Part shown: positions 34,447 through 40,285 of the stretch, one piece after another | How positions within the stretch are numbered: the first letter of the stretch is position 1 | Layout of the letters: the number at the start of each line of letters is the position of its first letter | Source of the DNA: Sedimentisphaerales bacterium | GTDB lineage: Bacteria; Planctomycetota; Phycisphaerae; Sedimentisphaerales; SM23-30 | Direction: 5' to 3' | Assembly: GCA_963662515.1 (NCBI GenBank) | Contig: OY759675.1 | Coordinates: 2,185,981 to 2,249,980 of the forward strand | Length of the DNA: 64,000 bases | Position numbers and translations under genes: made by a program | The notes under the pieces: generated by a model | Databases searched by the model: none | Seen by the model: only the letters and a program-made list of their open reading frames with translations | What the model was told of the DNA's origin: nothing

Positions 34447-35214
34447 TCTCCTGATTCACATAGTATCAGTGTTTAAAATAACTGAAAACCGTTTCAATCA
34501 TCCTGAACACTTCTTTAAACACAATTCATAAACACAAATGCAACACACAGGAACGAAAACGATCCTGTCATACATATTATTCTACTGGAGGTAAGTATCA
34601 CCCTCTGAGCTGATCACTAAAACGGACCGCACAACGATACATCCACCTTTATACAGGACTTATCGTCAGCTCAGGGCAACTGGATAAATGAAAACTTACA
34701 GATGAGTCTCTTCTCTCTCCGGAACTACATTCAATAATTCTCTTATCCATCTTAAATGTGTGATTATTGGCAGGCTAAACAGGTTACTTTCGGTATATAC
34801 CTGATAAACTATCTACTACAATTCTCTCTCCTACTTTAATGTATGATTCAATTATAGTATGTTAAATCTATTAAAACAATTAAATTTTAATAACACAATT
34901 AGCACAGATAATACCCATAATATGAAATACGGTACAATACAGCACAAGAGCTAATAGCAGTTAACCACTTATATAAACTAGAGTTAATTCTTCGATAGCT
35001 ATTTATGGCCACAATAAACAGCCTGAACTATTCCTGATAAAAAAATAAGTTTTTTAAACAACTTCCCGCTAAAAAGAATCCTGGAAAACATAATACTTAA
35101 AGATTAAACCAGTTATGACGATTATACTGACCGATCAGGCGAACCGGCGGCATAATGGTTTTTCCCTGAACATATGATCATATATATAAGATTATAAGAC
35201 CTAAAATGCTTCGT

Positions 35215-35490
35215 TCAGTGCTCACGATCAAGAGGCACAGGATCATAGCCGCCTTTGGCAAATGGGTGGCAACGAAGAATACGCTTAACAGTCAGCCATA
35301 AGCCACGCACCGGCCCGTACATCAACAGGGCCTGACGACTATATTCACTGCAAGTAGGCACAAAACGACAAGAAACAGGCAAATATGGAGATATGCACAA
35401 CTGGTAAAGCCGGATAAGAAACACCATAAAAGCCAGAGCAGTCTTGTTGATCAACTTAACTATAAAGCAAATGGGTTTATTTCCGGCCAT
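35215..35490 (-). CDS. yidD: Membrane protein insertion efficiency factor YidD
   Basis: It has '[31 protein letters not shown]' and '[14 protein letters not shown]'. Its start lies 1 nt after the rnpA stop. Confidence 0.88.
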
Positions 35491-35491
35491 A

Positions 35492-35866
35492 TCAGAGTAA
35501 CCCTTTCTTTTTGCTTCTTTTAGCTATACGGGCAGTAAGTGTCTTTAATGAGCTGATATAGACAATAGAAGAAATATTATCATTTGGCCTGGGTACTATA
35601 ACAAAATCATATCCAGAGGGAATTTCCTGTCGGTTAAGCCTGAATGCTTCTCTTATACATCTTTTACAGCGATTTCGGGCGACTGCATTACCATATTTAC
35701 GACCAATGGAAATACCAAACCGGCTATAAGCCCGCTGATTGGGCATACCGTATATCAACAAATAACCATCAGCAGAACTGTTTTTTTCTCTGAAAACAGT
35801 CTGAAATGAATCTAAACCTGACAATATAAGGCTTTTAGGTAATTTGTTACTGGCAGCTGGTTCCAT
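35492..35866 (-). CDS. rnpA: Ribonuclease P protein component
   Basis: '[28 protein letters not shown]' is the RnpA basic motif. It is in the conserved position upstream of yidD. Confidence 0.85.
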
Positions 35867-35927
35867 AGTATCTCAGTGTGTTTTTTCATATCAACTATGA
35901 TCCATTGTAATCACTATCATATTGCTG

Positions 35928-36095
35928 TCAAGCAAGCATTGTATCCAGGCCAGGGCTAACGCATGAAAATTTCAGACAGGATAACCGACTGAGTACAGTC
36001 TGGATTTGCCGCAGTTTAAGCGTGACGGGTTTGAGTTTGTGAGCTTTCTTACCTTTTCGACCCTGATTCGCCTTAAATTGATAATTAAATCTCAT
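35928..36095 (-). CDS. Small, very basic ORF (55 aa) in the position normally held by rpmH (L34). It may be a divergent or decayed L34, or unrelated.
   Basis: The ATG at 36095 is preceded by GGGGG 5 nt upstream, which is SD-like. 'MRFNYQFKANQGRKGKKAHKLKPVTLKLRQIQTVLSRL...' begins like L34 (MKRT[FY]QP) and is Lys/Arg-rich, but it lacks the HGFR core. Its 3' third is encoded by one arm of an inverted repeat. Confidence 0.3.
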   Translation of the reverse strand: MRFNYQFKANQGRKGKKAHKLKPVTLKLRQIQTVLSRLSCLKFSCVSPGLDTMLA

Positions 36096-36216
36096 AAGCC
36101 CCCGCTCGGGAGGGGAAATCTTTGCCGGACGATACCAAAGCAAGCTCAAGCTGCCAAAGATCCAGCCCGTAATCGGGCGGTTATCCTGTCAAATATTATT
36201 TCATGCGTTAGCCCTG
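35951..36216. repeat. Split inverted repeat (18 + 13 bp perfect helices) enclosing ~190 bp
   Basis: CAGGGCTAACGCATGAAA at 35951-35968 pairs with 36199-36216. GACAGGATAACCG at 35975-35987 pairs with 36178-36190. A small internal hairpin GCCCG-ATTA-CGGGC is also present. Confidence 0.75.
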
Positions 36217-36239
36217 ATATCCCGGCTTACAAACAATGA

Positions 36240-37829
36240 TCAGATCACTACATAATTATTCCTGCCGTTCTCCTTTGCCTTGTAAAGACAATTGTCTGCT
36301 GCTTCTATTATCAGGGAAACACCTGCGTTCTCAGAGGTAAGCTGGGCAACTCCAGAACTGAGCGTTACTTTCATACTATCACATTTCCACCTTACAGCTT
36401 TTAACGCCTGATATATTCTCTCCATAGCCAGCTTTGCCTTTTCTTTGTCCTGATCGATAAATATAAGCAGAAATTCATCGCCGCCGTACCTGCCAAAAAG
36501 ATCAGATTCGCGAATAATACCCTTTATTGTATTTACAACAGTAACAATTACCTCATCACCGCTCTGGTGACCAAACCTGTCATTGATCTGCTTGAAATAA
36601 TCAATATCAATTACAGCTACGGACAAATTATGTTGATATCTGACCGCACGGGAGATTTCTATTTCCAGCTTATCCAGGATAGTCTTGTGATTAAGAATTC
36701 CGGTCATACTGTCAGTGGTCGCCAATATTTCCAGCTGCCTTGATTTAGTCTGGATATTGTTAAGCAGATTATTGAACTGAATTGCCAGATAGCCAAGCTC
36801 ATCTTTTCGCTGCGATGACTCCTGAATTGAAAGATCCTCGCTTAGCTGAATTGATTCAATCTCCTGTACCATACGATTCAAAGGCTGCAAAACGATCTTT
36901 CTGGTCAATACAGTCATAACAATAAAGAGTAATAAGAACGATACGGTTATAGCACAAAAGAGATATTTAACCGCTGAAACGCCAAGATTTACTATCTCAC
37001 CATCTACCGCACAGTTAATCTTAAAGACCGGCTGACTATTGTTATCGTAGATTATAGTTGAAATCGTCTGCCGCCCTTCTATCATGGCAAACTTATAATT
37101 ATATGTCTTGAATATTCTGCCATTATTATCAGGAATAACCACATAATCACTGCCGCTATCATCGTCAGAGGCAAGCAGTTCTGCGGTGAAATCGGTACCG
37201 ACACTCTCACGAATTTCATCGAAAAGATCTTCTTCAATAAATCGTCCCATAATTATCGTGCCCCGACACTCACCCTCACTGTCTGAAGGTAAAACAGGAC
37301 AAGAAACAGTGATCAGATAATTCTCCTCAGTAATGCGAACAAAGTTATAGACCAGCTCATCTTTATCGGCATCAGCCGGAAATAGTGTGCCGGGCATAAA
37401 TTCCGGATCACCAGAAAGCTCGGCCAGATCGAGCTCAGCCCTGCTTTGGGTCTCATAACATTTGCCAAAAACCAGTTTGCCCTTAGCATCATAATAGTAG
37501 ATCAGATTCATACCGGTTGTGGCAAATGATTCTGTCTCCAGATTTGAATCTATATATTCCTGATTAAGATCGATGATAAAATTATAGGTATCGTCCCAGG
37601 CGCCCCAATCGTGACATAAAACATTTATATGTAAAATCACATTTTCTACGGTTTTTTGTATTATACTCAGCTCTACCCGTGCCTTTTTATGCTCAAGGTC
37701 AGTAAAAGCCGGTCTGATCAAAAAGTGGCTCACCGACATTAACAGTAAAAGACCAAAAAAACTGACAATTAAGGCAGTGATCAATAACTTAAACTTTATA
37801 GACTCTCTGAATCGTATCATTATTCTCAT
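36240..37829 (-). CDS. Sensor diguanylate cyclase (CHASE4-like periplasmic domain plus GGDEF)
   Basis: It has two TM segments. The sensor region has 'HDWGAWDDTYNFI', which is CHASE4-like. The GGDEF domain has 'DIDYFKQINDRFGHQSGDEV' and 'GRYGGDEFLLIF'. Confidence 0.88.
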   Translation of the reverse strand: MRIMIRFRESIKFKLLITALIVSFFGLLLLMSVSHFLIRPAFTDLEHKKARVELSIIQKTVENVILHINVLCHDWGAWDDTYNFIIDLNQEYIDSNLETESFATTGMNLIYYYDAKGKLVFGKCYETQSRAELDLAELSGDPEFMPGTLFPADADKDELVYNFVRITEENYLITVSCPVLPSDSEGECRGTIIMGRFIEEDLFDEIRESVGTDFTAELLASDDDSGSDYVVIPDNNGRIFKTYNYKFAMIEGRQTISTIIYDNNSQPVFKINCAVDGEIVNLGVSAVKYLFCAITVSFLLLFIVMTVLTRKIVLQPLNRMVQEIESIQLSEDLSIQESSQRKDELGYLAIQFNNLLNNIQTKSRQLEILATTDSMTGILNHKTILDKLEIEISRAVRYQHNLSVAVIDIDYFKQINDRFGHQSGDEVIVTVVNTIKGIIRESDLFGRYGGDEFLLIFIDQDKEKAKLAMERIYQALKAVRWKCDSMKVTLSSGVAQLTSENAGVSLIIEAADNCLYKAKENGRNNYVVI

Positions 37830-38087: not shown

Positions 38088-38164
38088 AGTAAGAGTCCAG
38101 CGTTTACGCAGTTGAGTTATTCCGAAATCCCGAACTCGCTTCGGGATTTCGCTGCAGCTCAACC
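38088..38164. repeat. REP/MITE-like palindromic element, copy A
   Basis: An extended hairpin reads GTTGAG..CCGAAATCCCGAA-ctcgc-TTCGGGATTTCG..CTCAAC. Related copies are at 41141-41200 and 41251-41297 (same orientation), and at 40237-40285 and 40908-40950 (opposite orientation). Confidence 0.65.
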
Positions 38165-38168
38165 TTTC

Positions 38169-38252
38169 ACTTTTCACTTTTTACTTTTTACTTTTTACTT
38201 TTTACTTTTTACTTTTTACTTTTTACTTTTTACTTTTTACTTTTTACTTTTT
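38169..38252. repeat. Heptanucleotide microsatellite (ACTTTTT)n: 11 perfect units plus 1 degenerate unit
   Basis: Read directly: perfect 7-nt periodicity from 38176 to 38252. It abuts the left end of the IS element. Confidence 0.92.
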
Positions 38253-38273
38253 ATCGGTGTTCGCTGCGCTCAC

Positions 38274-39963
38274 AGCTTTAAGAACCGGCTGAAGGGCTTG
38301 TTGCCCTGAGTGTTTTTTGGCGGGGTTTATTGTATTGTTTTTGTATATTCTGTTTTCAGTTGAATTTTATCTGGAATAATCGGAATTTGGCTCAGGATGA
38401 GGTTTGGGAAGTCGGATTACGCAATAAGTGCAAAAGCTGAGCTAAAATCAGGGTTGAAATCGCGGCTAAAACGGAATTAGCTGCTGTTTGAGCCTTTTTC
38501 ACTCCGGCCAGCGTGATCAGCTTACGCACATTCTGCACTGCTGCTATCAGAAGGTTCTGGATCTCTGCTTTTATCAGAGTTCGCCACCGGCATCTTTTCA
38601 GACCGTGATTGTTTGCGCCATCAGCAAAACTGCCCTCGCTGCGGGCCATTCGCTTTTGTCTCAGACTGCATCTTTCTGCAGAAGTAAAACAACCATCCGC
38701 CCAACGCGAATATTCCATATCAAGCTGCTCGCTTATCTGCCGGCCGCTGCTCTTACTCTTTACACATTCACTGAAATACTGACATTGTTCACATACCTTA
38801 CGATCAGCCTCATAGGCATAGTGCTTGCCATGACTACTGCCTTTTATCCCAGTAAATTCCAGCTTCTCTCCCGCAGGACATATATAACAATTGCGTACTT
38901 CATCATAAACAAATCGGTCTTTCTGAAATTCCCGGCTCTGGCCGCTCGAATGATATCTCGCATGATCAATGCAGGGCATAGCTCCTTTATCCTGCAAATA
39001 TCTGTAATTGTCCAGCGTACCATAAGCCTTATCCGCAACTACTGTCTCAACGGCTTTATGTGTATTTGATTCGTGAGTCTCGATCGCCTGCTCTAATACT
39101 TTGCCATCATTCACATTGGCCGGTGTTGTCACGGTAGCAGTTATAATTCCATGAGCATCATCCACCACCCGATGGTCTTTATATCCCAGCGTGGTTTTGC
39201 CATTCTTTGTGGCTAAACGGGCATCCGGATCACTTTGGCTGGCCCGCTGACAAAGCTCGGCATCGGCAGGCTTAACCTCGGTTTGCGACTTGCTGTTATC
39301 TTCCACTTTGTCCTGATCATCAAGCTGCTCATAGAGCCTGTCGCTGAGCTGATGTATTTGCGGACGCAAATGGTCCTTACTGGCATCAGCCGTTATCGTG
39401 GTAGAATCAATATGAATTATCTCGCCATCAACCAGACCGGCTTCTATGCACTGATCAAGCACTATCTGAAAGAACTCGGCAAATACTTCCCGGCCCCAAC
39501 GCTTGCGGGCCTTGGACAAGACACTGTGGTCAGGGGTCTCATCATCAAGATCATAATCACAGAACCACAGCCAGTCCATACGCAAAGGCAACTGAGCGGC
39601 AAGCTGTCTTTCAGATTTGACATTCTCCAGAAATAACAGAAAGATCAACTTCATGATCACAGCCGGATCGATCGAAGTATTACCCCTGGCTCCATAAAGC
39701 CCGGCTACACGCTTACGCACAAAAGAAAAGTCTATGGCCTTTTTGATCTTACGCAAAGGATGATCCGCCGGAACCTTCTGCTCCAGAGAAATCCCATAAA
39801 ACAACTTCGGCTTAATGTCCTTGGCTTTGCCCATCATAATAAATATATCTCCTGTTATTCAGACAGATATATTTTAAACATTATCAAAACAGATACAATT
39901 AATAAGTTCATGTTTTAATAAATATTTGGGCAACACGCCCTGAAGCCCGGTACTCTTAAAGCT
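38274..39963 (-). mobile_element. IS1182-family-like insertion sequence (~1.7 kb) with imperfect ~35-bp terminal inverted repeats
   Basis: The left IR AGCTTTAAGAACCGGCTGAAGGGCTTGTTGCCC (38274-38306) matches the reverse complement of the right IR GGGCAACACGCCCTGAAGCCCGGTACTCTTAAAGCT (39928-39963). It encloses a single transposase ORF. The exact ends and target duplication are uncertain. Confidence 0.75.
38392..39837 (-). CDS. IS1182/IS5-superfamily DDE transposase
   Basis: The N-terminal DUF772-type region reads 'HPLRKIKKAIDFSF...SIDPAVIMKLIFLLFLENVKSERQL...DWLWFCDY'. The DDE region has 'IHIDSTTITADAS' and 'VVADKAYGT'. The 481-aa length fits IS1182-family enzymes. Confidence 0.88.
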   Translation of the reverse strand: MMGKAKDIKPKLFYGISLEQKVPADHPLRKIKKAIDFSFVRKRVAGLYGARGNTSIDPAVIMKLIFLLFLENVKSERQLAAQLPLRMDWLWFCDYDLDDETPDHSVLSKARKRWGREVFAEFFQIVLDQCIEAGLVDGEIIHIDSTTITADASKDHLRPQIHQLSDRLYEQLDDQDKVEDNSKSQTEVKPADAELCQRASQSDPDARLATKNGKTTLGYKDHRVVDDAHGIITATVTTPANVNDGKVLEQAIETHESNTHKAVETVVADKAYGTLDNYRYLQDKGAMPCIDHARYHSSGQSREFQKDRFVYDEVRNCYICPAGEKLEFTGIKGSSHGKHYAYEADRKVCEQCQYFSECVKSKSSGRQISEQLDMEYSRWADGCFTSAERCSLRQKRMARSEGSFADGANNHGLKRCRWRTLIKAEIQNLLIAAVQNVRKLITLAGVKKAQTAANSVLAAISTLILAQLLHLLRNPTSQTSS

Positions 39964-40236: not shown

Positions 40237-40285
40237 CGCCCGTGCGGTCCCGAAGCGAGTTCGGGATAAACTCCAGCGACAATGG
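40237..40285. repeat. REP-like unit in inverted orientation, with a near copy at 40908-40950
   Basis: GCCCGTGCGGTCCCGAAGCGAGTTCGGGATAAACTCCAGC compares with TCGCCCGTGCGGTCCCGAAGCAAGTTCAGGATAAACTCCAGC. The core is the reverse complement of ATCCCGAACTCGCTTCGGG. Confidence 0.7.

Follow-up and report, generated by a model that had tools for sequence, protein, structure and literature searches.

A probable MITE-like, transposase-less element of the ISAs1 family in the intergenic region upstream of rnpA

Upstream of rnpA, the 64-kb stretch of DNA analysed here (the window, by which we mean the whole stretch) carries an imperfect palindrome of 266 bp that is very probably a non-autonomous element of the ISAs1 family; we term it MITE-like, since a MITE by definition occurs in several copies and one is seen in the 64 kb. 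Among the explanations offered in a first-pass annotation of this DNA it is the MITE-like insertion that our results favour: the arms of the long inverted repeat are ISAs1 terminal inverted repeats and a degenerate 10-bp target duplication lies outside them. The apparent anomaly at a conserved locus, i.e. the lack of L34, an odd open reading frame (ORF) and a giant hairpin, would then amount to an ordinary miniature transposon in a lineage where rpmH is unlinked to rnpA. Knowing this should prevent the ORF from being annotated as a diverged L34, and the hairpin from being taken for a riboregulator.

A palindrome with ISAs1-type ends

The inverted-repeat search of the window retrieved a perfect 18-bp repeat at both ends of the element, which is the longest perfect inverted repeat with a span of no more than 400 nt across all 1.2-kb tiles of the window; shuffling of the region gave a perfect inverted repeat of more than 15 bp in 0 of 300 trials. 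This repeat and a second perfect helix of 13 bp, formed together by 35951-35987 and 36178-36216, are located precisely as the first-pass annotation had reported (Table 1). Complementarity of the arms continues at 74% over a further 57 nt (35968-36024 against 36141-36197), and the arms are complementary over about 75 nt, beyond the terminal repeat alone. When folded as a single strand, the 306-nt region reaches -121.5 kcal/mol on the + strand (z = -8.0 against shuffles) and -118.8 kcal/mol on the - strand (z = -6.3), the long hairpin being a consequence of the palindromic build of the element. Each arm is also predicted to form a local side hairpin; those of the left and right arms differ in two stem pairs, both sides being changed in each pair. 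Immediately outside the repeats, the left and right flanks GTATCCAGGC and ATATCCCGGC agree in 8 of their 10 bases, the offset being exactly that expected of a target duplication (P ~4e-4).

Table 1. Features of the element and its locus (positions in the window), and transposase-less elements with the same terminal repeat found in other genomes (sizes)
Feature	Position or size	Strand	Remarks
Target-site duplication, left copy GTATCCAGGC	35941..35950		8/10 against right copy
Target-site duplication, right copy ATATCCCGGC	36217..36226		
Probable MITE-like ISAs1-family element, imperfect palindrome	35951..36216, 266 bp		18-bp terminal inverted repeats, no transposase similarity, long-hairpin fold
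Left terminal inverted repeat CAGGGCTAACGCATGAAA	35951..35968	+	18-mer also found at the ends of ISAs1 elements, in 105 genome stretches
Right terminal inverted repeat	36199..36216	-	Reverse complement of left repeat
Subterminal 13-bp helix arm GACAGGATAACCG	35975..35987	+	Pairs with 36178-36190
Partner arm of 13-bp helix	36178..36190	-	
Left-arm local side hairpin GACTG-AGTA-CAGTC	35987..36000		Predicted
Right-arm local side hairpin GCCCG-TAAT-CGGGC	36165..36178		Predicted
55-aa Lys/Arg-rich ORF (MRFNYQ...)	35928..36095	-	ATG 36095, stop 35928; judged non-genic (almost certainly)
Putative sigma-70-like promoter TTGACA-16-TACAAT for rnpA-yidD	35904..35931	-	11/12, consensus match only; outside element, intact
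rnpA (RNase P protein)	35492..35866	-	PF00825, E = 4.2e-26
yidD	35215..35490	-	PF01809, E = 4.5e-30
CHASE4-HAMP-GGDEF diguanylate cyclase gene, upstream	36240..37829	-	Stop codon 24 nt from element
Miniature element L079	132 bp		Planctomycetota MAG; target duplication 10/10
Miniature elements L056, L097, L015	182-184 bp		Phycisphaerae MAG24; target duplication 10/10
Miniature element L026	182-184 bp		Grouped with L056/L097/L015
Miniature element L028	255 bp		Saprospiraceae MAG; apparent 8-bp target duplication, shifted by 2

ISAs1 elements are characterized by inverted repeats of 14-22 bp starting CAGGG and by a 10-bp direct repeat (PMC11946415), and a direct repeat of the same length accompanies the terminal repeat CAGGGCTAATGCAAAGTCG of ISArsp11 (PMC6305408). 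The window element has an 18-bp repeat that starts CAGGG, is perfect at both ends and is common to autonomous elements encoding ISAs1 transposase; its target duplication of 10 bp falls within the range of 8-10 bp and lies outside the repeats, being degenerate in the window and 10/10 in family members; and its 266 bp are well under 600 bp and include no transposase gene. Compared with insertion sequences of the family (ISAs1, IS1358 and the H-repeat elements; e.g. ISArsp11, PMC6305408), which measure ~1.2-1.6 kb, it shares the 10-bp duplication and a terminal repeat resembling that of ISArsp11, but it is much shorter, lacks any transposase or remnant of one and pairs its arms far beyond the terminal repeat. 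No similarity to transposases was detected by tblastn inside the element, whose ORFs were also without Pfam or NCBIfam match. A frame ending at the TAG of the right repeat was considered as a transposase coding remnant and discarded, being open over 12 codons only and devoid of similarity. Some observations count against this explanation, namely that the duplication is imperfect while the repeats are perfect, that the window contains one copy of the element and no ISAs1 transposase as searched by tblastn over the 64 kb, and that the interior of the element is without relatives in the repeat-bearing loci of other genomes and in JGI metagenomes.

The 18-bp repeat is an ISAs1 terminus

The 18-mer CAGGGCTAACGCATGAAA was scanned in one genome per species and found in 105 genome stretches (L007-L111), the window's own copy not being among the matches, against about 17 stretches expected by chance according to our estimate from the size of the collection. 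Hosts of the 18-mer belong to the Planctomycetota, Chloroflexota, Proteobacteria, Bacillota, Bacteroidota, Spirochaetota and Verrucomicrobiota. Alignment of the matches revealed that the flanks outside CAGGG diverge at once in every case, and that inside it divergence sets in after 18-25 nt, from which it follows that the 18-mer forms the outermost end of a mobile element. Many copies were found 37-140 nt from contig ends, as is typical of unresolved repeats. In the matches L012, L019, L023, L032 and L041, the 18-mer occupies nt 57-75 of their contigs.

Full-length insertion sequences have the 18-mer at both ends. In L068 an inverted pair of 18-mers bounds a 1216-bp element flanked by a 10/10 target duplication, and its 378-aa ORF matches NF033564 (ISAs1 family transposase; E = 1.4e-121) together with PF13808 and PF01609; another full element with a 10/10 duplication is enclosed by inverted 18-mers in L042, and the same sequence is the terminus of elements in L033, L074 and L088. 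An ISAs1 transposase was present within 2.5 kb of the 18-mer in 27 of the stretches that carry it. Two further details were noted among the 105 stretches: in L042 (Methylocaldum; 1050-2000) the ISAs1 copy is interrupted by an insertion encoding a 316-aa zinc-finger-type transposase-like protein, the ISAs1 transposase being split into two ORFs, and in L007 (~1981-2022) two ISAs1 terminal repeats nearly abut (CAGGGCTAACGCATGAAATTTAATTTTCATGCGATTGCCCTG), representing a minimal element of 42 bp or else the remnant of an excision or junction.

Transposase-less derivatives with the same ends

The same 18-bp repeat is carried by transposase-less derivatives of 132-255 bp, all of them folding into hairpins closed by it, and those of MAG24 also have a hairpin directly inside the repeat. 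With these elements, from Planctomycetota, Phycisphaerae and Saprospiraceae MAGs, the window element shares the terminal repeat, the 10-bp duplication, the intergenic hairpin build and a subterminal local hairpin, whereas their interiors are unrelated and none of them is as long as the window element. When the window element was compared by blastn with the 105 loci that carry the repeat, alignments were confined to the terminal 20-35 nt and no interior relative emerged; JGI metagenomes scanned with a pattern combining the repeat and the second helix, as well as with a degenerate one spanning the two side hairpins, returned no match. One Phycisphaerae MAG (JAEIOG01) harbours around 30 copies of the 18-mer, many of them breaking contigs, in addition to miniature elements that form one family, measure 182-184 bp and are flanked by perfect 10-bp duplications. 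A minor by-product of this study is an 18-bp ISAs1 terminal repeat that is conserved across many phyla, being identical base for base in members of at least seven, and from which several miniature derivatives unrelated to one another have arisen in the Planctomycetota.

Known bacterial MITEs (Correia/NEMIS, ERIC, RUP and the Microcystis MaeMITEs; PMC2779907) resemble the window element in their size below 600 bp, terminal inverted repeats, target duplication and lack of transposase, as well as in intergenic insertion near promoters and in the long hairpin that they form if transcribed. They differ from it in that the window repeats come from a different IS family and in that a single copy was seen here, in a 64-kb window. 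In the literature searched we found no explicit description of ISAs1-derived MITEs, whereas MITEs of other IS families are well known.

The rnpA locus and the missing rpmH

All genes of the locus are on the - strand, the CHASE4-HAMP-GGDEF gene being followed by an intergenic region of 373 nt, rnpA and yidD. The last two match their Pfam families, are intact and are separated by 1 nt, in agreement with the earlier description of them as intact and tightly coupled. The adjacency and tight coupling of rnpA and yidD are common to this locus and to the rpmH-rnpA(-yidD-yidC) operon of E. coli and many bacteria; unlike that operon, the window locus lacks rpmH in front of rnpA, and yidD is not followed by yidC, so that the conserved arrangement is only partly present, as had been noted. 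Between yidD and the next gene, which encodes a 771-aa LamG-like secreted protein, extends an AT-rich stretch of ~770 nt (34447-35214) with no ORF longer than 37 aa; the Rfam search of this stretch gave nothing notable, its best match, a yeast snoRNA model at E = 0.81, being attributable to chance.

The first-pass annotation had further suggested that the element disrupted or replaced rpmH. Its premise that no recognisable L34 is encoded upstream of rnpA holds true according to Pfam, NCBIfam and tblastn, and three L34 sequences gave no tblastn match below E = 0.01 anywhere in the 64-kb window. The displacement itself finds no support. Excision of the element together with one copy of the duplication restores a spacer of 97 bp between the stop codon of the GGDEF gene and the start of rnpA, which leaves no room for rpmH (~135 nt for 45 aa, plus signals), and the retention of the target duplication argues for a simple insertion rather than for a rearrangement that caused a deletion. 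The closest relatives of RnpA, at 57% and 47% identity (none closer among 5.8 billion proteins), are encoded in loci where other genes and short spacers precede rnpA; in L001-L006, tblastn over the 0.1-5 kb available upstream of rnpA, depending on the locus, found no rpmH, and neither an element of this kind nor any repeat-like sequence is present there. Given that the 97-bp spacer is too short and that the nearest relatives also lack rpmH in this position, the missing linkage of rpmH and rnpA is a trait of the lineage and not an effect of the insertion.

The 55-aa ORF

A Lys/Arg-rich ORF of 55 aa does exist upstream of rnpA, as previously reported, and the inverted repeat brackets its start, the ATG lying between the arms and the left arm encoding its C-terminal part (...FSCVSPG). 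It is almost certainly an accident of the element's sequence and not a gene. Its ATG start, a nearby run of G residues, its richness in Lys and Arg and its location in the position of rpmH in many bacteria could be taken to indicate a real gene, for either an L34 that has diverged in this lineage or some other small basic protein, but we give this reading hardly any credence. Searches of Pfam (E up to 1) and NCBIfam (E up to 0.01) retrieved no match, including to the L34 model PF00468 with its KRT[FY]QP...HGFR core, and blastp produced no alignment with the L34 proteins of E. coli, B. subtilis and T. thermophilus at E up to 1000. The L34-like start that had been pointed out in the ORF is coincidental. 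A query joining all segments of the element that are open in any of the six frames was run against 5.8e9 proteins; at E <= 10 it recovered no homologue, and hence no annotated copy elsewhere, nor did it recover itself, which implies that the ORF was not called in the source annotation. The ORF lies wholly within or across the mobile element, and its last third is the translation of the terminal repeat and its flank; the C-terminal FSCVSPG, translated from the repeat, recurs in an unrelated repeat-crossing ORF of L033. The GGGGG run, which could pass for a ribosome-binding site, is only 3 nt from the ATG and within a predicted local stem, and no comparable ORF was found upstream of rnpA in the relatives L001-L006.

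Regulatory RNA, DNA switch or domesticated element

The near-consensus sigma-70-like site is located between the element and rnpA, and on this ground the rnpA-yidD promoter appears to be untouched by the insertion. The element itself, if transcribed, would most likely form the 3' untranslated tail of the mRNA of the upstream gene. These predictions bear on the earlier suggestion of a large structured RNA (a leader, an attenuator or a small RNA, whether original or a domesticated MITE) regulating rnpA and yidD, which we consider very unlikely. The very low free energy of the fold on both strands would suit such an RNA, as would the differing side hairpins, each of them self-complementary after changes on both sides of two stem pairs, and a weak internal promoter-like site (9/12) directed toward rnpA. 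However, the best promoter-like site for rnpA is downstream of the element, which would place the hairpin outside the rnpA leader, and the stability of the fold is fully accounted for by a palindromic build that is common to unrelated ISAs1-type miniature elements. In addition, Rfam assigned nothing to the element, either in the whole window at gathering score or in 35700-36450 at E up to 10, and no conservation of it is seen in front of rnpA in the closest relatives.

As a MITE-like element of the ISAs1 family, the palindrome could also have acquired a function after its insertion, e.g. as a four-way hairpin RNA of ~266 nt that would separate the diguanylate cyclase gene from rnpA-yidD as an insulator, terminator or stability element, or through expression of the small basic ORF; we see only a slim chance of such domestication. 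In that event the paired changes in the side hairpins would reflect selection on single-strand structure, and not chance or hairpin-templated repair. With just two arms to compare, selection and hairpin-templated repair cannot be separated as the cause of these changes.

Perfect inverted repeats around a segment that adjoins a promoter region are likewise what would be expected of an invertible or excisable DNA switch operated by a site-specific recombinase, the third proposal of the first-pass annotation. This is exceedingly improbable at the present locus, where the neighbours are a diguanylate cyclase gene and rnpA and no recombinase or invertase gene is found among the flanking genes. Moreover, the repeats are termini of a DDE-transposase family accompanied by a target duplication, and site-specific inversion systems make no target duplication.

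Proposed course of the insertion and neighbouring repeats

The non-autonomous ISAs1-family element may have reached its position by mobilisation in trans, an ISAs1-type DDE transposase supplied from elsewhere recognising both 18-bp terminal repeats. Insertion would have occurred at a 10-bp staggered cut within the former 97-bp spacer between the GGDEF gene and rnpA, with 10 bp between the insertion point and the -35 box of the predicted rnpA promoter downstream of it, at a site where rpmH would never have been present. The event is probably not recent because the target duplication is degenerate, its age being judged from the divergence at 2 of 10 positions. The insertion was probably neutral, and the 55-aa ORF is almost certainly a by-product of the element.

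The surroundings of the element contain further repeats. A gene for an IS1182-family transposase (NF033551, E = 4.5e-100; also PF13751 and PF05598) lies on the - strand at 38392-39837, 2.2 kb from the element. It has on both sides, in inverted orientation and ~2.1 kb apart, the perfect 20-bp palindromic sequence ATCCCGAACTCGCTTCGGGA (38127-38146 and 40248-40267), and adjoining this IS1182 element is a tandem array of the heptamer TTTTACT, repeated 12.7 times with 98% identity (38165-38253).
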